Positions 1-26,771 of a DNA stretch of 45,062 bases are shown piece after piece. Source of the DNA: Veterinaerplatzvirus T145P1; sequence record OZ035765.1; one strand, 5' to 3'. The notes under the pieces are model-generated. The model saw only the letters and a program-made list of their open reading frames with translations. It did no database searches and had not been told where the DNA came from. The number at the start of each line of letters is the position of its first letter. Position 1 is the stretch's first letter. The translations under genes and the position numbers were made by a program.

Positions 1-29
1 ATAATCTGACCCAAACAAAGGAGGATTAA

Positions 30-536
30 ATGAGCAAAGCAGCATTAAAGATGGGTGAGGGAAATTTCAAGGCGCTCTACAACAAGAAGTATGGCGATAT
101 TGCTATGGTGGCAATTAACCGCAAGTACACGCCTGAGGAAGTTTTCGATTTCGCCGTTAGGTACTTCTCATGGGCTGAAAGTACGGCAATCAAGGCCGCT
201 GAGACAGCATCATTTCAGGGCATGGTCACTGAACACCTCATACATAAACCTCGAGTATTCACATTAACCGGGCTGGCGCTCTTCATGGGTGTTAATATCA
301 ATAGGTTCGCTCGCTGGCGTACTGAGGCTGGATACTCTGACGTGATGGAATTCATTGATAACGTAATCTACGAGCAGAAATACCAGCTTGGCGTCGCAGG
401 CATCATCAACTCCACCATCGTTGGTAAAGAGCTTGGCATTGATAAGCCGCAGGAGATTACCATTAGCAACAACTCCACAGCTAACGACGTTGACAGCATG
501 AAGGAAGCGCTGGAATCTGTTATTGGTAAACTATAA
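30..536 (+). CDS. terminase small subunit (putative)
   Basis: 168-aa ORF directly upstream of the large terminase; RBS AAGGAGG before the ATG; position-based call. Confidence 0.55.
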   Translation: MSKAALKMGEGNFKALYNKKYGDIAMVAINRKYTPEEVFDFAVRYFSWAESTAIKAAETASFQGMVTEHLIHKPRVFTLTGLALFMGVNINRFARWRTEAGYSDVMEFIDNVIYEQKYQLGVAGIINSTIVGKELGIDKPQEITISNNSTANDVDSMKEALESVIGKL

Positions 537-553
537 CAATAAGAGGGTATAAC

Positions 554-2119
554 ATGTCTTTAGTATGGGAAGAAATGACCATTCAGGAAAAGATGGCGGT
601 TAAGGCGATATCAGAACACAGCTTCGAGGGGTTTCTTCGCTGCTGGTTTTCAATAACGCAAGGCGAGCGATATATCCCTAACTGGCATCACAAATATCTA
701 TGCCGAATTATCGACGAGATTATTGCAGGTGAGCGCAAGGACACTATAATTAACATAGCGCCTGGTAGCGGGAAGACAGAGATCGCATCAATCCACTTCC
801 CGGCCTACTCGATGGTTAAGCTGAAGAAGGTGAGGAACCTTAACATCTCATTTGCTGACTCCCTGGTTAAGCGCAACTCTAAGCGCGTACGTGACCTTAT
901 CAAGTCTCAAGAATTTCAATCACTATGGCCTTGCAAGTTTGGCACATGCAAAGACGATGAACTTCAGGTTCTTGATGAGAGTGGCAGGGTTAGATTTGAG
1001 TCAATATCAAAGGCGGCTGGGGGTCAGATTACTGGTGCTCGAGGTGGTTATATAACAGAAACATATAGCGGAGCCGTTCTATTGGATGATTTTGACAAAC
1101 CCGCAGATATGCTTTCTCCGGTTTATCGAGCTAACAACCACGTAATGCTTAAGAACACAATTCGATCACGTCGCGCTAGCTCTGTAAAGGGAAAGGCAAC
1201 ACCAATTATCTCTATACAGCAGCGCCTGCACGTCAATGACTCAACCTGGTTCATGATGGAAGGCGGTATGGGCATCGAATTCGATTTAATTAAGATACCA
1301 GCGCTAGTTACCGATGATTACATCGATTCACTTCCTGACTGGATTAAAGATCAGTTTGCTGAGGACGTACTAAGCAGTGAATATATTGAGCGAGATGGAG
1401 TAAAGTACTACAGCTACTTTCCTAAAAAGGAATCCGTAAACGACCTGGTGGCAATGTGGGATAGTGACCCGTACACTTTCCTTAGCCAATATCAACAATG
1501 CCCAGTGGCTCTTGGCGGTAACCTGATTAACGTGGATTGGTTCCAGCGTCTTAGTGATACATTCAGGCCTCCAGCTAAGTACGATTACAGATTCATCACA
1601 TGCGATACTGCGATGACTACAAAGAGTTATAGTGACTTCTCCGTGCTTCAGTTATGGGGCTATAAGGATGCTAAGATTTACCTGATAGACCAGCGCAGGG
1701 GAAAATGGGAAGCACCAGAGTTGGAGGCTGAACTGCTGGACTTCGAGAAGAAATCAAGGGCAACCAGTCAGTCAGATGGTATCCTCAGAAGGATTATTAT
1801 CGAGAAGAAAGCGTCTGGTATCGGCCTGATTCAATCAGCTGGCAGGGTTATGCGAACACCGATAGAGCCATACGTACCGGATAACGACAAGCTGACTCGC
1901 GTAATGAGCGCATTGCCACAGATTAAGGCTGGTAATGTCGTTCTTCCAGAGTCTGCGCCGTGGCTAAACGGATTGCTTACTGAGGTTGCTGCTTTTACGG
2001 CAGATGATAGCCACAAACACGACGACCAGATTGACTGTCTAACTATGGCAATCAACCTGGTACTTAACATTGCGGACGACCCCAAAGCGCGACTAATGCG
2101 CATAGCGGGAATTAAATAG
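554..2119 (+). CDS. terminase large subunit
   Basis: 521 aa; Walker A-like NIAPGSGKTE near N-terminus, C-terminal nuclease-like acidic residues; sits before portal. Confidence 0.85.
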   Translation: MSLVWEEMTIQEKMAVKAISEHSFEGFLRCWFSITQGERYIPNWHHKYLCRIIDEIIAGERKDTIINIAPGSGKTEIASIHFPAYSMVKLKKVRNLNISFADSLVKRNSKRVRDLIKSQEFQSLWPCKFGTCKDDELQVLDESGRVRFESISKAAGGQITGARGGYITETYSGAVLLDDFDKPADMLSPVYRANNHVMLKNTIRSRRASSVKGKATPIISIQQRLHVNDSTWFMMEGGMGIEFDLIKIPALVTDDYIDSLPDWIKDQFAEDVLSSEYIERDGVKYYSYFPKKESVNDLVAMWDSDPYTFLSQYQQCPVALGGNLINVDWFQRLSDTFRPPAKYDYRFITCDTAMTTKSYSDFSVLQLWGYKDAKIYLIDQRRGKWEAPELEAELLDFEKKSRATSQSDGILRRIIIEKKASGIGLIQSAGRVMRTPIEPYVPDNDKLTRVMSALPQIKAGNVVLPESAPWLNGLLTEVAAFTADDSHKHDDQIDCLTMAINLVLNIADDPKARLMRIAGIK

Positions 2120-2159
2120 CACGAATTGCTAAACGCTAGAGCCACGGATGGCGTATAGT
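2117..2159 (+). promoter_or_regulatory. conserved promoter/operator module
   Basis: TAGCACGAATTGCTA, 22-bp spacer, TATAGT; stop codon of terminase gene is the TAG of the palindrome. Confidence 0.5.
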
Positions 2160-2190
2160 TACTTCACACCAACAAGAGGAGAAAAGGCAA

Positions 2191-2565
2191 ATGAAAAACA
2201 AATCAAAGGCTTTATATCTTGGAAACACTTATGACGAGTGTTGTGAATTCACGCCGGGAAGAGAGTACGATTGTTACGATCTTGGTGATGGATTTATTGG
2301 TCTTTGCGATGATAATGATACTGAACGTTGCATTAAAAACGGAACGTTCTACAAGTTTAAACTAATCAATGAGGAACATTTTGTAACTGAAACTGAGTGC
2401 GCATCCATGCAGCCTAGCGCCGATAAAAAACCCGAGTTTAGATATTACATCAATGGCGAAGTGGTTACTAAGGTAAAGTTCGACGATACGCTATTGTGCG
2501 TCAAGGACTTTGAATCTAGTGGGGTTGATACATCATCAATCAAGTTCGAAGTAAAATTCGAGTAA
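2191..2565 (+). CDS. hypothetical Cys-rich protein (moron-like)
   Basis: 124 aa, N-terminal cysteine cluster; own promoter module upstream (2117-2159) and terminator downstream (2586-2609). Confidence 0.5.
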   Translation: MKNKSKALYLGNTYDECCEFTPGREYDCYDLGDGFIGLCDDNDTERCIKNGTFYKFKLINEEHFVTETECASMQPSADKKPEFRYYINGEVVTKVKFDDTLLCVKDFESSGVDTSSIKFEVKFE

Positions 2566-2585
2566 TCAAAAACCGTGTGATAAAC

Positions 2586-2609
2586 TAGCCCCCACATGGG
2601 GCTTTTTTT
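2586..2609 (+). terminator. rho-independent terminator
   Basis: AGCCCC-CACAT-GGGGCT followed by T7. Confidence 0.6.
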
Positions 2610-2623
2610 ATTGGAGAAATGCA

Positions 2624-3874
2624 ATGGTAAAGACAGACAGCTACGCCAATATCTTTCTCGGCGGCAGTGATGGTAGTGAGATTTACGGGAGCTTACAGAA
2701 TCAGGAGCCTACAATCCTGGCTTCTCTTTATGCGAATAATGCGCTGGTACGTAGAATTATCGACACAATCCCTGAGACAGCATTAGCGGCAGGATTCCAC
2801 ATTGATGGTATTGATGATGAGCCAGCATTTTGGTCGCGATGGGATGACCTGGAAATGACGCAGAATATTAACGACGCCTGGGCGTGGGCGAGATTATTCG
2901 GTGGCGCCGCTATTGTGGCTATCGTTAAGGACAATAGGGCACTAACAAGTGCGGTCAGAGAAGGTGCTGAGCTTGAAACAGTTCGCGTTTACGACCGCAC
3001 GCAAGTAAAAGTACAAACTCGCGAGGAGAATCCCCGTAACGCACGTTTTGGTAAGCCACTAACCTATCGCATCACCACAAATGAGAGCGATATGTTCTAT
3101 GATGTGCACTACAGCCGAATTCACATCATTGACGGAGAGCGAATTCCTAACGTAATGCGTCGGCAAAATGATGGCTGGGGCCGTAGCGTTCTATCCAGTG
3201 ACATTCTTGACTCAATTAAGGATTACACCAACTGTGAACGACTTGCTACGCAGTTACTGAAGCGCAAGCAGCAGGCGGTGTGGAAGGCGAAAGGTCTGGC
3301 TGAGTTATGTGATGATAGCGAAGGATTTGGTGCAGCTCGATTGAGACTTGCACAGGTTGACAACAATAGCGGCGTAGGCCAGGCGATTGGTATCGATGCG
3401 GAATCTGAAGAATACAGCATTCTCAACTCCGATATTGGCGGGATCGATGCGTTCCTGGATAAGAAGTTCGATAGAATCGTTGCCCTGAGCGGTATCCATG
3501 AAATCATCCTGAAAAACAAGAACGTTGGTGGTGTGTCATCAAGCCAGAATACAGCCCTTGAGACATTCCATAAGCTAGTTGACCGCAAACGTAACTCTGA
3601 GTTGCTTCCTATTCTTGGGTTCTTAATCCCGTTCATCGTAAATGTAGAAGAGTGGTCAGTTGAGTTTTATCCTTTAGCTCAGGAATCAAGCAAGGATAAG
3701 GCTGAGATTCTGGAGAAGAACGTAAACAGCATTGCATCACTAATTGCATCTGGCGCTATGAATGCTAACGAGGCGCGTGATACACTACGAGCCATCGCAC
3801 CAGAGATTAAGATTGGTGATGGTGATATTGAAGCTCAACAACAAGAAAAATCAGAGGAGGTTGTGATTGCTTAA
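2624..3874 (+). CDS. portal protein
   Basis: 416 aa, immediately after terminase, acidic C-terminus; typical gene order. Confidence 0.75.
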   Translation: MVKTDSYANIFLGGSDGSEIYGSLQNQEPTILASLYANNALVRRIIDTIPETALAAGFHIDGIDDEPAFWSRWDDLEMTQNINDAWAWARLFGGAAIVAIVKDNRALTSAVREGAELETVRVYDRTQVKVQTREENPRNARFGKPLTYRITTNESDMFYDVHYSRIHIIDGERIPNVMRRQNDGWGRSVLSSDILDSIKDYTNCERLATQLLKRKQQAVWKAKGLAELCDDSEGFGAARLRLAQVDNNSGVGQAIGIDAESEEYSILNSDIGGIDAFLDKKFDRIVALSGIHEIILKNKNVGGVSSSQNTALETFHKLVDRKRNSELLPILGFLIPFIVNVEEWSVEFYPLAQESSKDKAEILEKNVNSIASLIASGAMNANEARDTLRAIAPEIKIGDGDIEAQQQEKSEEVVIA

Positions 3875-3939
3875 ATTAATTGGTTACGGTGGGGGTTAAT
3901 GAATGATGAATTTGATGGCTTTTAGTGAGGAGAATTGGG

Positions 3940-5028
3940 ATGTCTAAAATCCGATATGACAACGCAAAGTTTAAGGCAACAATCGACGAGAATGGATTCT
4001 TAGTAGATACGCCAGTTGTCGCACGTCTCGGCGTGCAAGTCTACTACATGGAGGACGGCCGCACTGTTCGGGAGTTTCGCCCAGCCGAGGAGGTTTTCAA
4101 AGATGAATCTCTAGCGAGCTACCAGGGCAAGCCAATGACCATGGACCATGTTTTCGTTAACTCAGAGAATGCTAAAGAGGTGGTGGTAGGATCGGTTGCT
4201 GGAAAGGCGGAGCCATTAGGCAGCTCTGTAGTTGCTCCAATTGTTATTTACGATAGTGCCGCCATCAAGGAAGCCATGGCAGGTAATGCAAAGGAGTTAT
4301 CCGTTGGATACTCATCAGTTATTGATTACACCCCCGGCTGGGGCGACCCTGTTACTGGCGAGTACTTCCTCAAGTCTGAAAGTGAGCTATTCGACGTACC
4401 AGAAGGATGGCAGGAGTTCGACGCAATTCAGCGTGACATTAAAGTGAACCATCTGGCAATGGTGTATCGCGGTCGCGCAGGCATTGCCAAATTGAATATG
4501 GACGGTGAGCAGGAAAACCCGTATACTACTGACGTTGATATCAATAAAGAGGATAAACAGGAAATGACAGTTAAAATTAAACTCGACGGCGCGCAGGAAT
4601 TTGAGGTCGCCCCGGAAATCGCCTCTCACATCGAAGCACTGAACGCAAAGGCTGACACCGCAATCGCAGAGCGCGATTCTCTGAAAGCTAAAGTAGATGC
4701 AATGCCAGCTGAAATCGAAGCTGCCGTTGCTAAAGCGAAAGCTGATGCTGATGCCCTAGCCGCTCTGGTTGCTGTTGCTGCTGAGGCTGGTGTTAAGGCT
4801 GACGGTCTGGATGCTAAAGGCATTAAAGTTGCTTACGTTAAAGAAGTCTCCGGTCTTGATGTTAGTGAGAAGTCTGACGCATACATCGACGCGGCATTCG
4901 ACATTGCCAAAGAATCTGATAAAATGGCTGAAGTACGTAAAGCAACTACTGCTTCCGACAAATCTGACAGCGCCGATGAGCCTAAGAAATTAGACCCACG
5001 TGCTCGTTTAGCTAAAATTAAGAAATAA
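3940..5028 (+). CDS. head morphogenesis / scaffolding protein
   Basis: Start moved to ATG at 3940 (RBS GAGGAG at 3927-3932); C-terminal Ala/Lys-rich coiled-coil region typical of scaffolds. Confidence 0.5.
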   Translation: MSKIRYDNAKFKATIDENGFLVDTPVVARLGVQVYYMEDGRTVREFRPAEEVFKDESLASYQGKPMTMDHVFVNSENAKEVVVGSVAGKAEPLGSSVVAPIVIYDSAAIKEAMAGNAKELSVGYSSVIDYTPGWGDPVTGEYFLKSESELFDVPEGWQEFDAIQRDIKVNHLAMVYRGRAGIAKLNMDGEQENPYTTDVDINKEDKQEMTVKIKLDGAQEFEVAPEIASHIEALNAKADTAIAERDSLKAKVDAMPAEIEAAVAKAKADADALAALVAVAAEAGVKADGLDAKGIKVAYVKEVSGLDVSEKSDAYIDAAFDIAKESDKMAEVRKATTASDKSDSADEPKKLDPRARLAKIKK

Positions 5029-5040
5029 GGAGTTATAAAC

Positions 5041-5562
5041 ATGGCAATTCGTTCCGTAGCACTGGCTGGTATGGTTTCTGATACTTCTCTGTACAACATC
5101 GACGGCGCTTGCGTAGTTGGCGGCGCAGCAGCCATTCCGGTTGGCACTTTTGTTGGCGTTACATCAGCTCAGCCTGTAGATGGTCACAAAGTTGTTGGGC
5201 TTCCTGCTGTGACTGGCACACCAGTTAAACCTTACGGTGTTGTTGTTAAATCTCATTATGAGACTCCAGATGGCACCGCTCGCGTAAATGAAGCGGTTAA
5301 CGTGATGACACACGGTCGAATCTGGGTTCGTACAACTCTAGCGGCTGCGCCAGTTTTTGGTAGTAAGGTTTACGTAAACGCGAGTGGCGTTGTTGCTGCT
5401 AAGGCTGCTACCACTACCTGGGAAACTGGTTTTACATTTGCTGGTGGCTATGTGTCGGCTTACGCTGGCGGCGCTGACCCAATTAAGCAAGGTGAAAGCG
5501 TTGATGGTGCAATGGTTGAGGTTCAGTTGATTCAATCAGCAGACTCAACTGTCGCCGCTTAA
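5041..5562 (+). CDS. head structural protein (decoration-like, putative)
   Basis: 173 aa Gly/Ala/Val-rich; between scaffold and major capsid; strong terminator follows. Confidence 0.4.
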   Translation: MAIRSVALAGMVSDTSLYNIDGACVVGGAAAIPVGTFVGVTSAQPVDGHKVVGLPAVTGTPVKPYGVVVKSHYETPDGTARVNEAVNVMTHGRIWVRTTLAAAPVFGSKVYVNASGVVAAKAATTTWETGFTFAGGYVSAYAGGADPIKQGESVDGAMVEVQLIQSADSTVAA

Positions 5563-5577
5563 TAATTAAGATATATA

Positions 5578-5602
5578 AAGCCTCCTTCGGGAGGTTTTTT
5601 TA
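5578..5602 (+). terminator. rho-independent terminator
   Basis: GCCTCC-TTCG-GGAGG followed by T7. Confidence 0.7.
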
Positions 5603-5607
5603 TACCA

Positions 5608-5635
5608 TTGCGTGGGCTAAAAACTCGTGTATAAT
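5608..5635 (+). promoter_or_regulatory. sigma70-like promoter for major capsid gene
   Basis: TTGCGT, 16-bp spacer, TATAAT; between terminator and capsid RBS. Confidence 0.55.
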
Positions 5636-5673
5636 GAACCCGTAGACACCTAACTGAAAAGGAACAATAAAGA

Positions 5674-6618
5674 ATGGCCATTAAATTTGATGCAGAACAA
5701 GCAAAAATCACCGCTCACCTCGAGCAAATGGGCGTAGAGAAAGCAGATGCCGCTGGTATCTGGACTGTTAAGCAACTGACCGCCAATCTGGCACGAGCTT
5801 ACGAAAAAGAATATGCAGACAACTCCGTTGTTAATATCTTCCCTGTGACCAATGAAATCCCTGGTCATGCGAAATATTTCGAATATCCAGAATTTGACGG
5901 CGTTGGCATTGCTCAGATTATCGCCGATTACTCTGACGACTTGCCGCTGGTTGATGCGTTTATGACCGAGAAACAGGGTAAAGTGTTCCGCTTTGGTAAC
6001 GCGTTCCTGATCTCCACTGACGAAATCAAAGCAGGTGCGGCAACTGGTCAGCCACTGTCGGCTCGCAAACAGGCTCTGGCATTCGAAGCGCATGATAACC
6101 TGCTGGATAAACTGGTATGGTCAGGCTCTACACCACACGGAATTCCTAGCGTGTTCAATCATCCGAACATCAACAACGTTGTTTCTGGTGGTGCGTGGAG
6201 CTCTGCATCTGCCGCCATGACTGATATTACCGCACTTATTGATGCAATCGAGACTGCGACTAATGGCACTCACACCGCAACTGATATCTTGCTGCCTGCC
6301 TCCGCTCGCCGCCTGATGCAAGAACTGGTGCCGAATACATCTATCAGCTACGCCCAGCTGTTCGCTACCAATAACTCTGGTATCACTCTGCGTTATCTTC
6401 AGTTCCTGGATAACTACGACGGAGCAGGCGGTAAAGCAGCATTGGCGTTTGAAAAGAATCCTCTCAACCTTTCGATTGAGATCCCGGAAGCGACCAATGT
6501 ACTTCCAGGACAGCCTAAGGATTTGCACATCCGCTACCCTGTTACCTCCAAAGCAACAGGATTGATTTTATATCGCCCTCTGACGGTGGCCGTAATGAAA
6601 GGTATCACCTTCGCGTGA
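5674..6618 (+). CDS. major capsid protein
   Basis: 314 aa; own sigma70-like promoter (TTGCGT-16-TATAAT), strong RBS and flanking terminators indicate very high expression. Confidence 0.65.
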   Translation: MAIKFDAEQAKITAHLEQMGVEKADAAGIWTVKQLTANLARAYEKEYADNSVVNIFPVTNEIPGHAKYFEYPEFDGVGIAQIIADYSDDLPLVDAFMTEKQGKVFRFGNAFLISTDEIKAGAATGQPLSARKQALAFEAHDNLLDKLVWSGSTPHGIPSVFNHPNINNVVSGGAWSSASAAMTDITALIDAIETATNGTHTATDILLPASARRLMQELVPNTSISYAQLFATNNSGITLRYLQFLDNYDGAGGKAALAFEKNPLNLSIEIPEATNVLPGQPKDLHIRYPVTSKATGLILYRPLTVAVMKGITFA

Positions 6619-6624
6619 TAAATC

Positions 6625-6647
6625 GCCCTCTTCGGAGGGCTTTTTTT
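6625..6647 (+). terminator. rho-independent terminator (after major capsid gene)
   Basis: GCCCTC-TTCG-GAGGGC followed by T7. Confidence 0.7.
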
Positions 6648-6710
6648 ACGTCTGTACCAAATGGATTTGTTGGGTTATAATCACTCAATCAGATAACAAA
6701 GGAGACAAAA

Positions 6711-6956
6711 ATGATTCGTTTAGAACACACTGGCGCTTGCCTTATCGTTTACAGGGGTGAGAAATATTTGCCTGGTGACACTTTCGAGGTTGATGCAATT
6801 TGCGACGGACTCAAGCGTTTAATCGCAGAGGGTAAACTCACCATTGAGGGTGACGCCAAAGCAACCAAACAAATCGCGCAAGAAGTTGTTAGCAAGAAAA
6901 AGCGCAGAGAACCGAAAACCATCTCCGAGGCTGAGACTGGTAACGAGTACAAATAA
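6711..6956 (+). CDS. hypothetical protein
   Basis: 81 aa, RBS AAAGGAG, terminator downstream. Confidence 0.45.
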   Translation: MIRLEHTGACLIVYRGEKYLPGDTFEVDAICDGLKRLIAEGKLTIEGDAKATKQIAQEVVSKKKRREPKTISEAETGNEYK

Positions 6957-6961
6957 TAAAC

Positions 6962-6984
6962 AGGGCGCTTCGGCGTCCTTTATT
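6962..6984 (+). terminator. terminator-like hairpin
   Basis: GGGCGC-TTCG-GCGTCC followed by TTTATT. Confidence 0.45.
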
Positions 6985-6997
6985 GTATGGAGCTAAT

Positions 6998-7399
6998 ATG
7001 AATGATGCAATTTTGGCGTTTATGCGCTCGCTTGTACCTGCTCTCAAAGCGGCGGATGACGAATCAATTAATGTATGGATTGATTTGGCACGTCTATACG
7101 TATGCGAAAGCAAGTTTGGAGCAGACAAAGACAAGGCTGTCGGCCTTTATGCATTGCACCTGATGCTTGCTGATGGCGCGTTTAAAGGCGAGAACGAAGG
7201 TCTGGAAACATACAGTCGTAGAATGGCAAGTTACGCACTGAGCGGTGAATTCTCTATCACATATGATACCCAATCAGCAGCATCTGGTGATTTATCATCT
7301 TCTCAATTCGGTAGGATGTATAAGGCGCTTCTTCGCAAGAAAGGCGGTGGATTTGGATTAATTACTTCCGCTACTGGCGGTGGGTGCGGTTGCCGATGA
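6998..7399 (+). CDS. head-tail connector/adaptor protein (putative)
   Basis: Start moved to ATG 6998 (GGAG 5 nt upstream); position between capsid and tail genes. Confidence 0.35.
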   Translation: MNDAILAFMRSLVPALKAADDESINVWIDLARLYVCESKFGADKDKAVGLYALHLMLADGAFKGENEGLETYSRRMASYALSGEFSITYDTQSAASGDLSSSQFGRMYKALLRKKGGGFGLITSATGGGCGCR

Positions 7400-7767
7400 A
7401 CTACAGCGAAATAGAATCAATCACTCGCGAAGGAATTAACTTCTTTAGTGATGCCAATGGCGTTTACGAGATGAGTACTGGCGCTGGATATGTTGAAATC
7501 GTTAACGGCGTTGAGGTTGAGTTTCCTTCGCAAACATTCCAGCTAAAGGGTTTGGTTCGAGAAATCAAGACTCGCGATATAGATGGTGAGTTTATCCATT
7601 TTGGCGATAAGCGCGGAATCTTCACAGCTCAGGTGGAAATTAAGCAGGGTTATCAGATTAAAGTTGATGGTGAGACTTTTGTTGTTGTTGATCCGCGACC
7701 AGTTAAACCAACTGGTACAGTGGTTGGTTACAGACCGATTCTTCGTAGGGTGGCTACTTATGGCTAG
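7396..7767 (+). CDS. head closure protein (putative)
   Basis: ATGA overlap with the upstream stop; position-based. Confidence 0.35.
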   Translation: MNYSEIESITREGINFFSDANGVYEMSTGAGYVEIVNGVEVEFPSQTFQLKGLVREIKTRDIDGEFIHFGDKRGIFTAQVEIKQGYQIKVDGETFVVVDPRPVKPTGTVVGYRPILRRVATYG

Positions 7768-8197
7768 AAATATTGGAAGCGTCGCTACGTTTGAGAAATC
7801 TATTACTGACTGGATTGACAGAGCAGATAAGGGATTTGAAATTGTGGTCGCTAATACGGTCACTAAAACAGCCAACGCAATTGTGGACCTTTCCCCTGTC
7901 GACACTGGTAGATTCAAGGCTAACTGGCAAATTACCGCAAACTCACCAGCCCAGCAGTCTCTGAATGAGTACGATCAGACTGGCGGGCAGACAAAAACAT
8001 ATCTCGCCAGACAAGCCAGAGCAGTAGCCAATTCAAAAGCCACTAGTGTTATTTATATTACTAACCGACTTGATTACGCAGCCGACCTTGAGTATGGAGC
8101 TTCAAATCAGGCTCCGTCTGGTGTTTTGGGCGTGGTGCAAGCGAGGCTTGGCAGGTATTTTCAAGAAGCAGTGGAGGAGGCTCGTCGTGCAATATGA
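7760..8197 (+). CDS. neck / tail completion protein (putative)
   Basis: Start moved to ATG 7760 (track ORF has a long in-frame N-terminal extension overlapping the previous gene); DTGRFKANW motif region. Confidence 0.4.
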   Translation: MARNIGSVATFEKSITDWIDRADKGFEIVVANTVTKTANAIVDLSPVDTGRFKANWQITANSPAQQSLNEYDQTGGQTKTYLARQARAVANSKATSVIYITNRLDYAADLEYGASNQAPSGVLGVVQARLGRYFQEAVEEARRAI

Positions 8198-8588
8198 ATT
8201 ATCATTAGCAGCAAGGAAATTCGTCAACGATTTGTTGGTAAATGAATTTCCGGTCAGATATCCAGTTGCGTGGGAGAATGCTGCATTCACCCCTCCTGCG
8301 GATGGATCAATCTGGCTTAAGTACGACTACACGGAAGTTGATACTGTAACCTACGGATTAAGCAGGAAGTGCAAATACTACGTAGGCATGGTGCAGATTT
8401 CTGTTTTCTTCAGCCCTGGCACTGGAATTGATAGACCCAGACAAATCGCTAATCAATTGGCAGAATCTATCGTTGATGGTACAATGCTTGACAGCGGGAC
8501 CATTTATGAGTCTGGAGTTGTTAACCCGGTTATCAAATCCAAATCTGGGTGGTTTATCCCGGTTCGTTTTTATGTTCGTCTAGACTAA
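8187..8588 (+). CDS. tail terminator-like protein (putative)
   Basis: Probable GTG start at 8187 after GGAGGAGG; directly precedes major tail gene. Confidence 0.35.
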   Translation: MQYELSLAARKFVNDLLVNEFPVRYPVAWENAAFTPPADGSIWLKYDYTEVDTVTYGLSRKCKYYVGMVQISVFFSPGTGIDRPRQIANQLAESIVDGTMLDSGTIYESGVVNPVIKSKSGWFIPVRFYVRLD

Positions 8589-8603
8589 CAAAAGGAAAAA
8601 TAA

Positions 8604-9260
8604 ATGGCTCATCTCAGCAATGGCACGCAGGTCTTCGTAGAAGGCTCTCGCGGAGCTGCAATTGACGTAACTGCAATTTCTAACGCAGTTACCCCTGTTT
8701 TAACTGTATCTGACGCCTCTGGCTTGGTCGTTGGTGATTACTTGCTTTTCACCTCTTCTGCCTCAACTCTTCTGGCTGACAAGCAGGTTCGCGTAACTGC
8801 AATCACTGATACGTCAGTAACCGTTGAAGGTATTGATACCTCCAGCACCACTAAGTTCCCTGCTGGTCTAACTGGTGAAGTTGTTAAAATTACTTCATGG
8901 TTCGAGGTTCCTTGTGTTCAGGACGTATCTACTGACGGCGGCGAACAGCAGTTCGTTAACTTCCAGTGCTTGTCAGATGACCGCGAACAGCAGATTCCGA
9001 CTTATAAATCTGCCGTAACAAACACCTTCACCTTTGCTCACGAGTACACTAACCCGGTTTATCCGGTTCTGCGTAACTACGACGAGTCTGGCCAGGTTGT
9101 TGCGATTCGTCTGTTCGTACCTCGCGCTCAGGAAATGCGTTTACAGTCCGGCACTATCGCTTTCAACGACACCCCTACCATTGGTGTTAACGAAATCGAA
9201 ACGGTATCCATCGCAGTATCCATTCGTGGGCGCCTATCCTCTGTGGCAGCAGAAGTTTAA
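8604..9260 (+). CDS. major tail protein
   Basis: 218 aa, Ser/Thr/Val-rich; sits before chaperone pair and tape measure; terminator follows. Confidence 0.6.
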   Translation: MAHLSNGTQVFVEGSRGAAIDVTAISNAVTPVLTVSDASGLVVGDYLLFTSSASTLLADKQVRVTAITDTSVTVEGIDTSSTTKFPAGLTGEVVKITSWFEVPCVQDVSTDGGEQQFVNFQCLSDDREQQIPTYKSAVTNTFTFAHEYTNPVYPVLRNYDESGQVVAIRLFVPRAQEMRLQSGTIAFNDTPTIGVNEIETVSIAVSIRGRLSSVAAEV

Positions 9261-9266
9261 AGCACA

Positions 9267-9289
9267 AACCCTCTTAGGAGGGTTTTTTA
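9267..9289 (+). terminator. rho-independent terminator (after major tail gene)
   Basis: AACCCTC-TTAG-GAGGGTT followed by T5. Confidence 0.65.
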
Positions 9290-9294
9290 TTGCA

Positions 9295-9337
9295 TAGCAC
9301 TTTTTGCTAAAGCGGTTATTCAACTTTGCTGTATAGT
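9295..9337 (+). promoter_or_regulatory. conserved promoter/operator module
   Basis: TAGCACTTTTTGCTA, 22 bp, TATAGT, leader TACCTCATCGAAACGA. Confidence 0.5.
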
Positions 9338-9370
9338 TACCTCATCGAAACGAAATGAGAGATTAAAGAA

Positions 9371-9619
9371 ATGAATAACGTTAAAAACATCATCAAGCTC
9401 GCTGCGGTTCTGTTTGCTTTTTATGCGGTAGTTCAGATTGTAGACCCAACAGGTGAGGCTGATGCCAATATCAAGGCAAACAAATATACTGTTGAATTTG
9501 CTAAGGCTGAGCGAGCATGTCAGGAGCTTGTAGGTGGCAAAGTTGACCAAATCATGAAATACGGCAAAGAGGTTTGTAAGGACTCGGCTGCTAAGATTGC
9601 AAAAGAAAACACTAAGTAA
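9371..9619 (+). CDS. hypothetical small membrane/secreted protein (moron-like)
   Basis: 82 aa with N-terminal hydrophobic segment; own promoter module at 9295-9337. Confidence 0.5.
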   Translation: MNNVKNIIKLAAVLFAFYAVVQIVDPTGEADANIKANKYTVEFAKAERACQELVGGKVDQIMKYGKEVCKDSAAKIAKENTK

Positions 9620-9657
9620 TAGAATACATACTCACAAACAATAAGAGGATTAACAAA

Positions 9658-9972
9658 ATGGCAAAGTTCAAACTTTCACTGGCAGCACTCCCAGACTTTA
9701 AGCTACCAGTAAAATTTAAGCTGGCTAACGACCAGGATGTAGAGGTTATCTTTACAGTCAAGCATAAGAAAACATCTGAGTTGCAGGAGCTGCTTAGCAA
9801 GGAAGACTTGAGCACAAAAGAGCTTATTATGGCAATTGCTTCTGATTGGGATCTGGAAGAAGAATACAACGAAGATAACGTTAATGAGTTCTCAGACCTT
9901 TTCCCGGCCTCAACTGTTGCACTGACAACTGCTTACATGCAAGCGCTTGCTGGTCAGCGAGTAAAAAACTAA
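9658..9972 (+). CDS. tail assembly chaperone (G-like)
   Basis: 104 aa acidic protein directly upstream of tape measure; ends at slippery AAAAAAC. Confidence 0.6.
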   Translation: MAKFKLSLAALPDFKLPVKFKLANDQDVEVIFTVKHKKTSELQELLSKEDLSTKELIMAIASDWDLEEEYNEDNVNEFSDLFPASTVALTTAYMQALAGQRVKN

Positions 9973-10292
9973 AACGAGCGGTGTATCTACAGTACCAGTC
10001 AGAGCCAACTGATGCCGAACTGGAAGCTATTGGGATGCGCCGCTCTGATTACGAAGATGAAGAGCCTGAGGTTTTACACTTCGACGACAACATGATGAAG
10101 GCGTGGGACATTTATTGTTCAATGGCTACGCAGTGGAGAGTAGGAGCCAATGGAGCTACAGGGTTAGATTACAACGTGCTAAATTTCCTCTTTAGAGTGT
10201 ATAATGTTTCTGAAGAAGAATTGGTACTCAGCGATTTACGCATCCTTGAAGCTAAGGCTCTTGAGATGATGGATAACCTGAGAAAAAAATAA
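9658..10292 (+). CDS. tail assembly chaperone frameshift fusion (G-T-like, -1 shift at 9963-9969)
   Basis: Heptamer A_AAA_AAC sits in the 0 frame at the 3' end of the upstream ORF; the -1 frame continues into the 9981-10292 ORF. Confidence 0.55.
9963..9969 (+). other. -1 programmed ribosomal frameshift slippery heptamer (A_AAA_AAC)
   Basis: Heptamer in the 0 frame immediately before the chaperone stop; -1 frame open through 10292. Confidence 0.6.
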
Positions 10293-10314
10293 CCCGCTTC
10301 GGCGGGTTTTCTAT
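10292..10314 (+). terminator. terminator-like hairpin before tape measure gene
   Basis: ACCCGC-TTCG-GCGGGT followed by TTTC. Confidence 0.45.
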
Positions 10315-10327
10315 TATGGAGGCTTAG

Positions 10328-13309
10328 ATGGCAACAAATGAATTAGCCGGAATCACACTAGCCGTAGATGTCTCGCAAGTAGACAGGGGAACGCAATCCC
10401 TGCAAAAGTTCAGACAGGCAAACCAGCAAGCCGCTTCCGGTATTAGTGAATTCGTCAACGCTGAGCAGGTTGCTAAAAAACAGGCGAGAGATACGGCTCG
10501 TGCACTTTCTGAGCAGCAAGCGTCACTAGCTAAATTGCAAACAGCTATCGACCCAACTGCTGCAAAGTTCCGCAAGCTGCAAGAGGCAGCGGTGGGTCTT
10601 GATAAGGCATTCGCTGCTGGCGTAGTTCCTGACGAGGAATTTTTCCGCTTAGGTGAGGCGCTAGAAACTCAAAACGCAAAACTTGCTCGTTCACGTGCGG
10701 CGCTAACTGAAGAGGGTAGGGCGGCAGCGCAGGCTGCAAAGGATAAGGCAAAAGCAAAGGCTGAAGCGGATAGATTCATTGCATCACTTGAGCGTCAGGC
10801 TCAAGCGGCAACATTGACGCGTGAGGAGTACTTAAAGTTACAAGCGGCCCAGCTTGGCGTTAGTTCTCAGGCAGCACCCATCATTGACAGAATCGCCGAC
10901 GCATCACAGAAGGCAAACACCCAGTTAATTGCTCAGAGTAATGCTTTTCAGAAATCAGGATTAAGCGCCGGGCAATACAAGAATGCCATATCTCAACTAC
11001 CAGCGCAGATTACTGATATTGGCACGTCGCTTGCTGGTGGCATTCCGATTTGGCTTATTGCAATTCAGCAAGGTGGGCAGATCAAGGATGCATTTGGCGG
11101 CATTGGTAACACCTTTAGATTCGCACTTGCAGCCTTAAACCCATTCAATGTAGCTGTTGGTGTTTTGGGTGGGGTACTTGTAGCTCTTGGTGTTGGTGCG
11201 GCTCAGGCTGAAAGTGAATTCAGAGCATTAAACTCTGCCATTGCATTTTCCAACAACTCTACAATCGCATCAATCTCGCAGGTTAGAGAGTTGGTTAGCT
11301 CTGTTTCTGATGCAACAGGTGCCACCAGAGGGCTTGTGACTAGCATCGCAACAAGCCTTATTGAGCAAGGGAACCTTACGCTGACGCAGATTGACAAGAT
11401 TACTAAATCGACCGCAAGATGGGCACAGTTGACAGGCAAGGATGCGAAGGAAATTACTGGTTACTATAACCAGATTGCGAGCGACCCAATACAGGGATTG
11501 GTTGATTTGGATAAGCGCTTTAACTTCCTCACTCAGGGGCAGTTGACGACAATCGAAAACCTGAGCAAGACAAAGGGAGAGGTCGAGGCCGTTACCGCCG
11601 CAATTGACATTTTCAGCAAGTCGCAGGAAGCAAACCTTAACGACATAGCAGCGCAGTTAACTCCACTTGAGTTAGCCTGGAATGACTTTAGAAAGTACAT
11701 CTCTGACATTTGGGATGCAATTAGCCGCAGAACGGTTGGGGCGCTAAACCTGTTTGTTGACGTAATTGCCGGAACAATTGAGCAGATCAGGGTCTTCATT
11801 AACCAGGGTGACGTACTGATTGGTGAATTCGTAATTAGCGCAACGCAAGCGCTGCAAAACATTCCTGGTCTTGATGGTGTTGGTGATGATGTCATAAAGA
11901 GCCAGCAGAAGATTATCGATGCAGCCAAGAAGCAAAACCTTGAGCTAGAAAAGTCTATCAAGGAGCGCGATGCCAGAATAAGAGAAGGAGAACTTGGTTA
12001 CGTTACTCGCAGAGAAAATCAGAATACCAATGAGCAGTCAGGCACGGATGAGGAGTTTGCAAAAAGGAAGAAGGCGCTTCAGGATGAACTTGATGCGATC
12101 AAGAAGAACAGGAAAGAAGAAAATGGCAGGGTTAAAGAGCAAAGAGACCTTACAATTGGTTACGAATCTGGCGTACTGGCACTTCAGGCTCAACTCAAGG
12201 TTCTTCAGGAAAATAGGGATATTGGCGCAGTAATAAGTAATGAGCGCAAGCAGTATCTTCAGGATGAAGCCAAATTCAGGATTCTTGAGCAGAGGCAGCT
12301 TGATGGTTCAATCACCAAAGAGCAGTCAAGACTTCTTCTTGAGAAGGATAAAGTCCTCGAATTGGCAAGGCAGAAGGCTGAACTTGGAGATCAGATTGTT
12401 TTGCAGGAGCGAGCCAATAAGTTAGCTGAAGATAACCGCAAGAAGATTCTTCAGATTAACAACGAAGCAAAAAACATTGATTTGGGGGCTGGTCTATCTT
12501 CTCGTGAACAACAGAGAGCCAAAGAGATTCAGGCTCTTCAGTCCAATCAGGTTAATGCTGGTGGCGCAATTGATGACGTGGATTTTCAGCAGCTTCTCGA
12601 GGCAAGACGTAACTTTTATGCTCAGGAAGATGCGCTACGTGAAAACTGGCTTGCTGGTGTGAACCAATCCTTTGCTAATTGGGCTGAGAGCGCGAAGGAT
12701 GCATTCTCAATTGCTGGAAGTTTAACCACCACAGTATTTGAAGGCATTACTGACCAGATTACTGACCTTGTAACAACTGGTGAAACTAACTTCAGAGAGT
12801 TCACTGTTAACATCCTTAAACAGATTGCTAAGATTGCGGCTCAGCTTCTTATTGTTAAGGCTATCGAGTCTAGTTTAAGTAGCTTTGGTGGTACTGGTGG
12901 CGCGATTGGCTCTATCGCATCTGCGATTGGTGGTGGATTCGCTAACGGTGGTTATACTGGTAATGGAGGGAAATACCAACCAGCAGGAACCGTACACCGT
13001 GGTGAGTTTGTATTCACAAAAGAAGCAACTAGTCGAATCGGTGTTAAGAACCTTTACGCTCTAATGAAAGGTTACGCAAACGGTGGTGTCGTTGGTGGTC
13101 CCTCTGGCTATGCAAATGGTGGCTTGGTTTCTGGAGGCACAGATGTTAATGTTAGTGGAATTACGGTTAACGTTAATAGTGGAATTGGAAGTGACCCAGA
13201 GCAGGCCAAGGCGCTGCAAAATGGCGTTAAGGCAATTGTAGCTGAAGAGATTTCTCAGTCTTTCCAGCAGGGTGGCAGAGCTTATCAGTACCTGCGCGGA
13301 TTTAACTAA
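10328..13309 (+). CDS. tail tape measure protein
   Basis: 993 aa, long coiled-coil, Gly-rich C-terminus; canonical position. Confidence 0.9.
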   Translation: MATNELAGITLAVDVSQVDRGTQSLQKFRQANQQAASGISEFVNAEQVAKKQARDTARALSEQQASLAKLQTAIDPTAAKFRKLQEAAVGLDKAFAAGVVPDEEFFRLGEALETQNAKLARSRAALTEEGRAAAQAAKDKAKAKAEADRFIASLERQAQAATLTREEYLKLQAAQLGVSSQAAPIIDRIADASQKANTQLIAQSNAFQKSGLSAGQYKNAISQLPAQITDIGTSLAGGIPIWLIAIQQGGQIKDAFGGIGNTFRFALAALNPFNVAVGVLGGVLVALGVGAAQAESEFRALNSAIAFSNNSTIASISQVRELVSSVSDATGATRGLVTSIATSLIEQGNLTLTQIDKITKSTARWAQLTGKDAKEITGYYNQIASDPIQGLVDLDKRFNFLTQGQLTTIENLSKTKGEVEAVTAAIDIFSKSQEANLNDIAAQLTPLELAWNDFRKYISDIWDAISRRTVGALNLFVDVIAGTIEQIRVFINQGDVLIGEFVISATQALQNIPGLDGVGDDVIKSQQKIIDAAKKQNLELEKSIKERDARIREGELGYVTRRENQNTNEQSGTDEEFAKRKKALQDELDAIKKNRKEENGRVKEQRDLTIGYESGVLALQAQLKVLQENRDIGAVISNERKQYLQDEAKFRILEQRQLDGSITKEQSRLLLEKDKVLELARQKAELGDQIVLQERANKLAEDNRKKILQINNEAKNIDLGAGLSSREQQRAKEIQALQSNQVNAGGAIDDVDFQQLLEARRNFYAQEDALRENWLAGVNQSFANWAESAKDAFSIAGSLTTTVFEGITDQITDLVTTGETNFREFTVNILKQIAKIAAQLLIVKAIESSLSSFGGTGGAIGSIASAIGGGFANGGYTGNGGKYQPAGTVHRGEFVFTKEATSRIGVKNLYALMKGYANGGVVGGPSGYANGGLVSGGTDVNVSGITVNVNSGIGSDPEQAKALQNGVKAIVAEEISQSFQQGGRAYQYLRGFN

Positions 13310-13339
13310 TTAACGGGGCTTCGGCCCCTAAGGATTTTT

Positions 13340-13690
13340 ATGGCAATAGATAATTTTACATGGTGTACACAAATCCAGAATGGTGGAGCTGCATTTTCCA
13401 ATACAAACAATGTTCGTATTGTTAGCTTTGGCAATGGTTTTGAGCAAAGAGGAACAGGGGGCTACCGCAGTAATAAGCGCAGCTACCAGATGACCTATAC
13501 AAACAAGGACTGGCGTGAGGTTATGGATTTCTGCTTCAATCACATCATCACACCATTCTTCTGGAAAACACCGCAAGGTGATACTTCTATGTTTGTTATT
13601 CAGCAGGATAGCATTTCAGTTACACCAATTAGTAGCGAAGTTCAGACTGTAAACATGCAATTCGTAGAAGTTTTTAGCTCAATGCGTTAA
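13340..13690 (+). CDS. minor tail protein (lambda M-like)
   Basis: 116 aa immediately after tape measure; canonical order. Confidence 0.8.
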   Translation: MAIDNFTWCTQIQNGGAAFSNTNNVRIVSFGNGFEQRGTGGYRSNKRSYQMTYTNKDWREVMDFCFNHIITPFFWKTPQGDTSMFVIQQDSISVTPISSEVQTVNMQFVEVFSSMR

Positions 13691-13693
13691 ACT

Positions 13694-13715
13694 AAGCCCC
13701 TATATGGGGCTTTTT
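13694..13715 (+). terminator. terminator-like hairpin
   Basis: AGCCCC-TATAT-GGGGCT followed by TTTTGTT. Confidence 0.5.
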
Positions 13716-13728
13716 GTTGGAGAAATAT

Positions 13729-14484
13729 ATGTTAAGTCCAAAGTTTGAAAATCAGTTGCAAAGCCTTTTCCCTGGTGAGATTGTGACACTAATCCAGGTT
13801 GACGGCACGTCCTTCGGGGGTCTCGTTTATTCGTTCCACAATGAGAACATCTCATACACTCCAGAAGAAATCATGCTGGCTCAAATGAATGGCGAGCCAC
13901 TACCAGAGAAAACCATCACATTTCGTGGTGAAGAGTACGGGCCTAGACCATTTGGAATCTCTGGCATAAATATGACTTCTGACGGAAAGGCCAATAAGGT
14001 TACATTAACGGTATCAAACGTTGACCAGCGTATTAGTGCGTTAATCCGAACATACAACGGACTTGTTAAAGCTAAGGTTACAATCTGGATTACTACGCGC
14101 GATAACATCAATGAGGATGGAAGCATTGCTGACGGGGACTATCGCAGATTCGTTTACTTTATTGAGCGACCGAAGCAGGTTGACTACAAGACCGCATCGT
14201 TTGAGCTAAGCAGCCCGATGGATATGGATGGTATTTATATCCCCGCAAGACTTGTTCAGTCTGTTTGCTATTGGGCTTCTAGGGGTTGGTATCGCAGCGG
14301 TAATGGATGCGACTACGCTGGCAATCGTTATTTTGACAAAGACGACAACCCGGTAAGTGATCCGTCTCTAGATTTCTGCGCCGGAACAGTTAATAGCTGT
14401 AAGATTAGATTTGGAGAGAATAACCAGCTTTCATTTGGTGGATGCGCAGCAGCAAGCCTTCAAGCTAAAGCGAATCAGAGCTAA
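13729..14484 (+). CDS. minor tail protein (lambda L-like)
   Basis: Start moved to ATG 13729 (GGAG upstream); canonical order. Confidence 0.8.
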   Translation: MLSPKFENQLQSLFPGEIVTLIQVDGTSFGGLVYSFHNENISYTPEEIMLAQMNGEPLPEKTITFRGEEYGPRPFGISGINMTSDGKANKVTLTVSNVDQRISALIRTYNGLVKAKVTIWITTRDNINEDGSIADGDYRRFVYFIERPKQVDYKTASFELSSPMDMDGIYIPARLVQSVCYWASRGWYRSGNGCDYAGNRYFDKDDNPVSDPSLDFCAGTVNSCKIRFGENNQLSFGGCAAASLQAKANQS

Positions 14485-14493
14485 GGGGGAACA

Positions 14494-15252
14494 ATGTTAA
14501 CACCAAAAGTTAAACTGGAAATCTTCCAGCACGCAAAGGAAGTTTACCCGCATGAGTGCTGTGGAGTTGTTACGCAGAAGGGTCGCGCTCAGAGGTATCA
14601 CAGAATCACCAATGTCAGCAAGGACCCGGAGAATGAGTTTATCCTTGATTCGAATGAGTATGCAGATGTTCTCTTTGAGTTGGCTCACAATGAATCTATT
14701 GTTTACGTAGTTCACTCTCATACGGGTGATGGCGCAACAACAAGGCCTAGCCCAGCGGATATTTGCAGCTGTAATGAATGCGAGGTTCCTTACGTTATTG
14801 TAAGCATCCCAGAGTTGGACATGAGAATCCTTGAGCCATCAACCATGCCTCTGATTGGTCGACCTTGGGGGCTTGGTAGCTTTGATTGCTGGGAGTTGGT
14901 AATGGCGTTCCACAAGAAATACGGCGTCAAACTGAATGACTACCGAGTTAATTACCCGTGGTGGGAGAAGCGGTACAATGAAAATATCTATGACGACAAC
15001 TGGATTAAGGAAGGATTTGAGTTGGTGAAAACTTCAGATATTACTGTTGGCTCAATGATTATGATGCAGGTCCAGAGTGAAGTAACAAACCACGCCGGAA
15101 TCTACATTGGCAACAACAGATTCATTCACCATCTTTATGGTAAAATGAGTTCCATTGATATCTATTCCGATTACTGGCGAGAGCGCACAGTGAGAATCGT
15201 TCGCCATAAGGATTTACCAGAGGATGTAATCTATGACCCAGAAACTGATTGA
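14494..15252 (+). CDS. tail assembly protein (lambda K-like, MPN/JAMM plus NlpC/P60)
   Basis: JAMM-like HSHTGDG...SPAD motif and C-terminal Cys/His NlpC-like residues. Confidence 0.85.
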   Translation: MLTPKVKLEIFQHAKEVYPHECCGVVTQKGRAQRYHRITNVSKDPENEFILDSNEYADVLFELAHNESIVYVVHSHTGDGATTRPSPADICSCNECEVPYVIVSIPELDMRILEPSTMPLIGRPWGLGSFDCWELVMAFHKKYGVKLNDYRVNYPWWEKRYNENIYDDNWIKEGFELVKTSDITVGSMIMMQVQSEVTNHAGIYIGNNRFIHHLYGKMSSIDIYSDYWRERTVRIVRHKDLPEDVIYDPETD

Positions 15253-15805
15253 TATTAAGTTAGGTCTGTCTCTAGGCCGCAAGTTTGGAAAGATTCACCA
15301 GATGGCAGTGAATAGCGTGCCGGAGGCAATGAGAGCACTTTGCTCACAGATTCCTGCATTCAAGGAGTTCATGAATAGCCACGTTGGTCAAAATACAAGG
15401 TACGCCGTGTTCGTTGATGGTAAAAATGTGAACGAGCATCGAATTTCTGATTTTAGTGCCGTTCAGGAGATACGAATCTTGCCAATTCCGCAGGGTCGCA
15501 AGTCAGGCGGCTTGTTTCAGACAATTTTAGGTGCAGCCCTTATCGTTGTTGGTATCTACACTGGCCAGGCTTATCTTGTTGGTGCAGGTATCTCTCTTGC
15601 TGCTGGCGGTGTTGCTCAGTTGCTTTCACCTCAAGCTACTGGGTTGAAAGACCAAAGTAACCAGACAAGTAACAGGGCATCTTACGCATTCGGCTCGGCT
15701 GTAAACACGGTAGCCGCTGGCTACCCGGTTTGCCTACCGTATGGCTATCGAACGGTTGGAGGTTCGGTGTTTAGCGCCGGCTCGTATAGTGAAGACATTG
15801 CTTAA
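15233..15805 (+). CDS. tail assembly protein (lambda I-like)
   Basis: 190 aa, hydrophobic Gly-rich segment; overlaps K-like gene. Confidence 0.75.
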   Translation: MTQKLIDIKLGLSLGRKFGKIHQMAVNSVPEAMRALCSQIPAFKEFMNSHVGQNTRYAVFVDGKNVNEHRISDFSAVQEIRILPIPQGRKSGGLFQTILGAALIVVGIYTGQAYLVGAGISLAAGGVAQLLSPQATGLKDQSNQTSNRASYAFGSAVNTVAAGYPVCLPYGYRTVGGSVFSAGSYSEDIA

Positions 15806-15812
15806 ATACCAT

Positions 15813-15836
15813 ACCCGCCTAGTGCGGGTTTTTTAT
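15813..15836 (+). terminator. rho-independent terminator between I-like and J-like genes
   Basis: ACCCGC-CTAGT-GCGGGT followed by T6. Confidence 0.6.
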
Positions 15837-15885
15837 TTAGTGTAGAATGGCACAAATGATCAAAACAAACATGAGGCTTTGTGAT

Positions 15886-19272: not shown

Positions 19273-19277
19273 TAAAT

Positions 19278-26768: not shown

Positions 26769-26771
26769 AGG

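Follow-up and report, generated by a model that had tools for sequence, protein, structure and literature searches.

Two accessory genes in the late operon of a T1-like phage follow copies of a repeated, marbox-like candidate promoter module

Morons, a concept owed to Hendrix and Juhala, are known from lambdoid and other tailed phages. The promoter-early stem-loop (PeSL) units of T4-type phages were reportedly described by Arbiol et al. in 2010 as mobile regulatory cassettes. Here, we analyze two genes in the late operon of Veterinaerplatzvirus T145P1, a T1-like phage of the Braunvirinae (Drexlerviridae). The window is the whole stretch of 45,062 nucleotides of sequence record OZ035765.1, the first 12 kb of which show 85-92% identity to many Rtp-like coliphages. 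Gene 1 lies between TerL and the portal gene (slot 1), and gene 2 lies between the major tail gene and the tail assembly chaperone genes (slot 2). Both open reading frames (ORFs), singled out in an initial annotation, are real. They are accessory, moron-like genes rather than core structural ones, and each is preceded by a copy of one common module that we predict to be a promoter.

Part of this module has a described counterpart in relatives. Phage TLS has a 21-nt direct repeat, aaATAGCACnnnTTGnTAAAA, with 18 intergenic copies that follow the direction of transcription ~76 nt 5' of start codons; the repeat is also found in T1, Rtp, and Rogue1, and its function was left open as a stoperator, an enhancer, or an UP element (PMC11447400). 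The marbox/soxbox has the 20-bp consensus AYNGCACNNWNNRYYAAAYN (PMC2064960). In class II MarA/SoxS/Rob/RamA promoters, a forward marbox overlaps the -35 position, with its center at ~-41, the -35 hexamer is unrecognizable, and the -10 is normal (PMC10268841, PMC12052159, PMC9638938).

Insertion slots in the late operon

Gene 1 and its module form a single indel of ~453 bp (~2121-2573) relative to DTL and to vB_EcoS-12210I, the type species of the genus, in both of which the portal gene starts 48 nt after TerL. With a slash marking the breakpoint, the empty junction of these two genomes reads AAATAGC/CGTGATAAAC-terminator, and that of the window reads AAATAGC/ACGAATTGCTAAA...gene...AAAAAC/CGTGTGATAAAC-terminator. 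BLAST across the slot gave a span of ~1245 nt in genomes where it is empty (FP, OzMSK, DTL, TR1/2, the 12210I group, Rogue1, AHS24, and AHP42) and of ~1700 nt where it is filled (2725-N35, BEK2, IME253, SU57, EC3a, ACG-M12, IMM-001, Jk06, and Sd1). The slot is empty in T1, and it holds HNH endonuclease genes in AugustePiccard and e4/1c. Homologues of gene 1 were found in 33 phage records only, mostly at 41-56% identity. At the protein level, TerL and the portal gene are 91-96% identical versus 46% for gene 1, whose GC content is 38.4% versus 46-47% in the flanks. The junction between the module and TerL recurs in EC3a, ACG-M12, Jk06, Sd1, and AugustePiccard, and in the first four of these the slot-1 gene always comes with the module. 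AugustePiccard carries two stacked module-led cassettes, the HNH gene and then a gene 1 homologue. A paralogue of gene 1, bas03_0023 (33% identity, E = 8e-10), occupies another late-operon slot in JulesPiccard, where its marbox module begins directly past the stop codon of a minor tail gene; the equivalent site of the window (13691-13713) is empty.

Gene 2 was found in 81 records at 79-96% identity and is fixed in Braunvirinae. It is absent from T1, Jk06, a Klebsiella Webervirus-like phage (hereafter the Klebsiella phage), and most other Drexlerviridae, and genomes without it have a major tail-to-chaperone span ~290-335 nt shorter. In Phagiculus, slot 2 holds a DNA methyltransferase gene behind a module whose spacer contains the major-tail terminator. 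The allele of ACG-M12 is 51% identical to gene 2, with flanks at 96-97%. Of the 19 differences between gene 2 and its EC3a counterpart, 17 fall at third codon positions, as in a coding sequence under purifying selection, and its GC content (41.4% versus 49% in the major tail gene and 42.5% in the chaperone gene) is weakly deviant. These data bear out the proposal that both genes are insertions, and the synteny comparison suggested in the initial annotation does find each of them present in some relatives and missing in others; gene 2, however, is fixed in its subfamily and is not a sporadic moron.

The genes had also been described as bracketed by terminators and independently regulated. Each has a terminator on one side only: gene 1 shares its 3' terminator with TerL, and this terminator lies directly 3' of TerL in empty-slot genomes; the terminator of the major tail gene precedes cassette 2 and has equivalents in T1, Jk06, and the Klebsiella phage. 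No terminator was found 5' of gene 1, where the module contains TAG (2117-2119), the stop codon of TerL. None was found between gene 2 and the chaperone genes, the next one lying 3' of the chaperones, and gene 2 and the chaperones are therefore one predicted transcript. Clean independent regulation was thus not upheld: gene 1 is open to TerL read-through, and gene 2 is a lineage-fixed addition whose predicted promoter also serves the chaperone genes.

We favor, with moderate confidence, the reading that both genes are accessory cassettes in recurrent slots of the late operon, led by a marbox-like promoter unit and exchanged via that unit. The late operon of Drexlerviridae would have insertion slots between TerL and the portal gene, between the major tail and chaperone genes, and at a third site occupied in JulesPiccard. 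Leading each cassette, at the stop codon of the preceding gene or overlapping it, would be the standard expression unit of the family, i.e., a 20-bp marbox-like element, an 18-bp spacer, a TATAGT -10 hexamer, a ~25-nt leader, a ribosome-binding site, and the start codon. The cargo would be transcribed alongside the non-structural genes, independently of late read-through. Such cassettes would have no terminator of their own, gene 1 using that of TerL and the gene 2 transcript running through the chaperone genes to the terminator beyond them. The ~60-bp repeated module is probably a homology patch for the gain, loss, and swap of cargo.

In another reading, the module is just an unusual constitutive sigma-70 promoter (an UP-like/alpha-CTD element plus a -10) that neither needs an activator nor takes part in cassette exchange; ordinary illegitimate recombination at intergenic sites would then have made the slots polymorphic. 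Against it, the cassette junction coincides exactly with the ATAGCAC boundary in each of six independent genomes, over three slots, and the element is not the A-tract UP consensus. We regard a constitutive promoter as quite unlikely, even if several copies have an extended -10 (TGnTATAGT) and an UP element was among the suggestions made for TLS (PMC11447400).

Slot 2 provides evidence that counts against the cassette reading. In Jk06, a genome without gene 2, the major-tail terminator is followed by an extended -10, TGTTATAAT; the corresponding place holds a -10-like hexamer, TAAAAT, in T1 and the Klebsiella phage. The slot-2 promoter may therefore be resident in the tail operon rather than borne by the cargo, and re-initiation 5' of the chaperone genes may be a general feature.

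Some further observations concern the heads of the cassettes. The TAG within ATAGCAC is the stop codon of TerL in the window and of the HNH gene in AugustePiccard (1427-1429); in JulesPiccard and Phagiculus, the module begins right past the stop codon. The module head may terminate any ORF it lands behind. In the Klebsiella phage (2096-2168), the identical 20-mer ATAGCACGAATTGCTAAACG lies over the TerL stop codon, and a wrongly spaced TATAAT and then a terminator come after it, with no gene in the slot; this resembles the head of an empty or decayed cassette. JulesPiccard has small ORFs at 5643-6185, 14371-14745, and 15629-16111, late-operon intergenic sites that are empty in the window, an indication that there are insertion slots beyond the two singled out initially.

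Searches gave no assignable function for either protein. Gene 1 encodes a variable N-terminal half and a conserved C-terminal part of ~45 aa. Its description as Cys-rich suits this allele, which has seven cysteines, but these are not kept among homologues. The AF2 model has a confident small beta-barrel at residues 1-60 that resembles SH3-like folds, including those of small T1-like phage proteins. The only profile match was phrog_14592 (E = 1.7e-32), and a set of 5.8 billion proteins contained only 15 clusters of the family, each of them on T1-like contigs. Paralogy with the ORF at 30822-31022 was considered and found unsupported. Our best guess is that the protein is cytoplasmic, interacts with the host or with a defence, and evolves under diversifying pressure. 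In ACG-M12 (2491-2820) and phiEB49 (2307-2635), the homologue of gene 1 is split, with the conserved C-terminal 45 codons in another frame and an A-run one base shorter than that of EC3a; a pseudogene, slippage, or a sequencing error in the homopolymer could explain this.

The gene 2 product has a basic N terminus, a hydrophobic stretch of 15 residues, and a possible A-D-A/N cleavage site; its N-terminal hydrophobic helix agrees with the earlier description as a membrane or secreted protein. Two cysteines, C50 and C69, are invariant in the alignment and lie in the helical C-terminal part (AF2 pLDDT, 63). All 39 clusters of the family come from T1-like contigs. The best guess here is a small envelope protein that has one disulfide and is either secreted or anchored in the membrane. 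Superinfection exclusion at the receptor level was considered and not assigned to it; in Rtp-like phages, an Rtp45-type lipoprotein fills that role.

These proteins might instead be conserved virion or assembly parts, gene 1 encoding a minor capsid or packaging accessory protein and gene 2 a tail-assembly factor, with the modules as ordinary internal promoters tuning late-gene dosage. The label that PHROG gives to the family of gene 1 ("virion structural protein," head and packaging), which speaks against our reading, points that way, as do the annotation of JK_35P in Jk06 and, for gene 2, its fixation in Braunvirinae, purifying selection, and predicted co-transcription with the chaperones. 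Yet the label traces at best to JK_35P, a "hypothetical minor outer capsid protein," and no proteomic source for it was found: a proteomic study of relatives lists seven other proteins (PMC4070988), and AHS24 and AHP42 lack gene 1. Moreover, slot 1 holds no gene in DTL, OzMSK, Rogue1, AHP42, T1, or the type species of the genus, and gene 1 is frameshifted at its A-run in ACG-M12 and split in phiEB49. For gene 2, an export signal would be unexpected in a cytoplasmic tail-assembly factor, and the gene is absent from most Drexlerviridae. A virion role for the two proteins is, in our view, very unlikely.

The repeated module and its marbox-like element

Both genes are preceded by a module of the form ATAGCAC-N3-TTGCTAAA-N20-TATAGT. 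In the window, the exact pattern TTGCTA-N22-TATAGT was counted 7 times versus 0.13 expected, with constant spacing, and relaxed scans returned ~14 module copies. All copies except those of genes 1 and 2 lie in the non-structural part of the genome (20-45 kb). The qualifier "early-type" used in the initial annotation is loose, the module being found 5' of small early ORFs and also of recombination, primase, and lysis-proximal genes. The distance from the -10 to the start codon is 31 nt for gene 1, 33 nt for gene 2, and mostly 29-41 nt for the other copies. Copies with a correctly spaced -10 aim at the next ORF on the same strand and have the leader TCATCGAAACGA in common; the exceptions are two reversed copies in the late region of T1 and an orphan at window position 26708. 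A scan of the window for canonical sigma-70 -35/-10 pairs missed every module copy, and no -35 was found in the modules.

The upstream block of the module is the TLS repeat: AAATAGCACGAATTGCTAAAC lies 75 nt before the start of gene 1, and GCATAGCACTTTTTGCTAAAG lies 77 nt before that of gene 2. It also fits the marbox/soxbox consensus at 14 of 14 specified positions, a match that gives the 21-nt repeat a concrete, testable identity. Allowing at most 1 mismatch, the consensus had 15 matches in the window (1.05 expected), 21 in T1 (0.77 expected), and 16 in the Klebsiella phage. A marbox followed by TAnnnT at 18-19 bp was found 11 times in the window, 13 times in T1, and 8 times in the Klebsiella phage, versus 0 in shuffles. 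The micF promoter of Escherichia coli, the class II example with a solved structure, has, as measured, ACAGCACTGAATGTCAAAAC, an 18-bp gap, TAGAAT, and +1 eight nt past the hexamer, which is the spacing of the phage module. With a predicted start 7-8 nt past the -10, the phage marbox would be centered at ~-40.5 to -41.5; it is in forward orientation and overlaps the -35 position, with no -35 hexamer, which is class II geometry.

The module is most likely a class II promoter of the MarA/SoxS/Rob type, as predicted from this match and geometry. These host activators, with two helix-turn-helix motifs each, would bind the module and replace the -35 contact of a sigma-70 class II promoter. No MarA homologue is encoded in the window or in T1 (tblastn, phmmer), and a phage-encoded MarA-like activator was accordingly rejected, the annotated regulator being Cro-like. 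Two other assignments were discarded: a sigma-54 promoter, because the spacing of (T)AGCAC-N3-TTGC is 2 nt under that of TGGCAC-N5-TTGC and a -10 follows, and a symmetric class II site of the CRP/FNR type, because the dyad is just 5+5 bp and conservation is asymmetric. A literature search returned no paper tying marbox, MarA, SoxS, or Rob to phage promoters.

More tentatively, and as a single joint claim that we hold to be possible but short of probable, T1-like phages might wire nearly all their non-structural units and the mobile cassettes of the late operon to class II marbox promoters, with the ~60-bp unit tripling as stop codon, promoter, and recombination joint. Several points weigh against the class II reading that we favor. 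The promoter function and activator dependence of every copy are read from sequence. Unstressed cells are scarce in MarA and SoxS, and Rob is largely sequestered; it is not obvious why a virulent phage should make its whole early programme depend on these proteins. An extended -10 (TGn), present in some copies, might let these fire unaided. Positions outside the marbox consensus are conserved too (A3, T11, T12, and the upstream AA), and marboxes without a usable -10 occur at window 26708, T1 8362 and 25021, and Klebsiella phage 2096. Finally, the element has a partial dyad, TAGCA-N5-TGCTA, and could bind a dimer of the Cro-like protein of the phage instead.

This last point leads to the explanation in which the element is the site of a phage regulator (the Cro-like helix-turn-helix [HTH] protein being the candidate), i.e., an operator, a stoperator, or an activator site, both genes simply belonging to its regulon and the likeness to a marbox being coincidental. 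Beyond the dyad, it can draw on the annotation of a Cro-like regulator in T1, the Klebsiella phage, and JulesPiccard, on the existence of copies without a -10, and on the stoperator or enhancer roles proposed for the TLS repeat (PMC11447400). However, conservation is asymmetric (ATAGCAC ... TAAA[A/C]), the orientation to the -10 is fixed, all 14 marbox positions fit with the spacing of micF, and the element is also found on genes needed before any phage protein exists. We consider a phage-regulator site unlikely.

If the host-activator reading of the module is true, MarA, SoxS, and Rob, which respond to antibiotics, oxidants, and bile, would drive or gate early phage expression, which would be relevant to how phages behave in the gut and to therapies that pair phages with antibiotics. 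It would also account for the TLS/T1 21-nt repeat and for the near absence of recognizable sigma-70 promoters in these genomes.

Other features of the module were observed. The spacer hairpin of module 1, GCCACGGATGGC, also occurs in the copies whose marbox starts at 31583, 40489, and 43700 and in the slot-1 cassettes of Jk06, Sd1, and AugustePiccard. In 13 of 40 module copies, the -10 hexamer is flanked by the arms of a perfect inverted repeat of 5 bp or more, e.g., GGGGTAatttgtTATAGTTACCCC (mean of 1.6 and maximum of 6 in shuffles). Such repeats are located at window 40786-40836 and 42833-42885, at T1 1450-4900 and 47633, and at Klebsiella phage 44005-47160, and their stems vary in sequence from copy to copy in a way that looks compensatory. 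This hairpin would be outside the RNA of its own promoter, because its 3' arm precedes the predicted start. The two reversed units of T1, each a minus-strand marbox plus a -10 (18831-18850 and 15067-15086), are antisense to structural genes, and one of them falls precisely in the interval from the major tail gene to the chaperone genes, which holds gene 2 in the window. The plus-strand orphan (26708-26800) lies between the minus-strand lateral tail fibre and primase genes, beside a bidirectional terminator and ~60 nt from an inverted partial marbox copy, CGAATTGCTAG, on the minus strand; this arrangement is kept in JulesPiccard (27296) and T1 (34902).

Genome context

The features of the two cassettes and of the surrounding genes are collected in Table 1. 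In the late region (1-20000), canonical sigma-70-like sites are depleted (18 versus 29.2 +/- 5.5 expected) and terminator-like sites are enriched (29 versus 17.4 +/- 4.2 expected); many late genes end in a terminator, with the next ribosome-binding site directly after it. The sole Rfam match was a tRNA gene at 44705-44778, and relatives have a tRNA-Arg (TCT) just 5' of the terminase genes. Near-identical T1-like genomes are filed under the names of Campylobacter (e.g., A110b), Pseudomonas (PsgS01F), and Vibrio (Vc1) phages, and protein cluster P0051 carries a Nitratidesulfovibrio name. These labels probably reflect contaminating coliphages or wrong hosts.

Table 1. Cassettes, module copies, and neighboring genes, in window coordinates
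Feature	Position	Strand	Detail
TerS	30-536		
TerL	554-2119		
Module 1	2116-2159		ATAGCACGAATTGCTAAACG-N18-TATAGT
Marbox-like 20-mer ATAGCACGAATTGCTAAACG, head of cassette 1	2116-2135	+	0 mismatches to AYNGCACNNWNNRYYAAAYN
Spacer hairpin GCCACGGATGGC	2143-2154	+	recurs in a sub-class of the module
-10 TATAGT, cassette 1	2154-2159	+	18 bp 3' of marbox; predicted start ~2166 (inferred)
Gene 1	2191-2565	+	124 aa, 7 Cys, acidic (pI 4.65)
Rho-independent terminator	2587-2610	+	common to gene 1 and TerL
Portal	2624-3874		then head genes
Major tail gene	8604-9260		Phage_tail_3
Terminator of major tail gene	9266-9291	+	5' of cassette 2
Module 2	9294-9337		ATAGCACTTTTTGCTAAAGC-N18-TATAGT
Marbox-like 20-mer ATAGCACTTTTTGCTAAAGC, cassette 2	9294-9313	+	1 mismatch, at position 19
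-10 TATAGT, cassette 2	9332-9337	+	18 bp 3' of marbox; predicted start ~9344, in conserved leader TCATCGAAACGA
Gene 2	9371-9619	+	82 aa, phrog_22925
Tail assembly chaperone gene	9658-9972	+	Phage_TAC_4
Tail assembly chaperone gene	9981-10292	+	DUF1799
Terminator 3' of chaperones	10291-10308	+	
Tape measure	10328-13309		
Cro-like HTH regulator	27754-28233	-	homologue of T1 ST23
Other module copies, 0-1 marbox mismatch	30742, 31583, 33693, 40489, 40786, 42323, 43700	+	first base of 20-mer
Other module copies, 0-1 marbox mismatch	20595, 27767, 38039, 39220	-	first base of 20-mer, read on the minus strand
Weaker copies, 2 marbox mismatches	~22881, 41796, 42833	+	from TTGCTAAA/-10 scan
Copy without a -10	26708	+	

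Comparison with described systems

Moron-like insertions in phage structural operons are already familiar; what is added here are the slots, the 21-nt repeat as the leading edge of the insertions, and the marbox identity proposed for it. At least three recurrent insertion slots are defined in the late operon of Drexlerviridae, and their cargo comprises a fast-evolving SH3-like family, a putative secreted disulfide protein, HNH endonucleases, and a DNA methyltransferase. Such slots are natural places to seek host-interaction or anti-defence genes.

The block at the head of each cassette matches the TLS repeat in sequence, in its orientation with transcription, and in its distance to the start codon; absent from the TLS paper are the marbox consensus, the constant 18-bp gap to a -10, and the position at the leading edge of variable cassettes (PMC11447400). 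With the class II MarA/SoxS/Rob/RamA promoters of Enterobacteriaceae, e.g., micF, the module shares an asymmetric 20-bp marbox (GCAC ... YAAA) lying forward over the -35 position, an unrecognizable -35, a canonical -10, and a gap of 18 bp between marbox and -10. It differs from these host promoters in that the copies are carried by a virulent phage, number 12-20 per genome, and are more uniform, and in that activator binding is putative.

Like morons, the two genes are extra genes present in some relatives, inserted at precise junctions in the late operon (the gene 1 indel; the absence of gene 2 from T1, Jk06, and the Klebsiella phage), and their base composition deviates, clearly for gene 1 and weakly for gene 2. 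The module that precedes each gene is, at the sequence level, a strong candidate for a promoter of its own. Unlike morons, they reside in a virulent phage and have no prophage-state expression, they lack terminators of their own, and their predicted promoter is the repeated unit of the genome itself, not a foreign one. The PeSL cassettes are similar in that their small variable ORFs are flanked by repeated early-promoter units, many with a stem-loop, which reportedly promote modular shuffling. They belong to another promoter type and another phage family, and the cassettes described here also invade the late structural operon.

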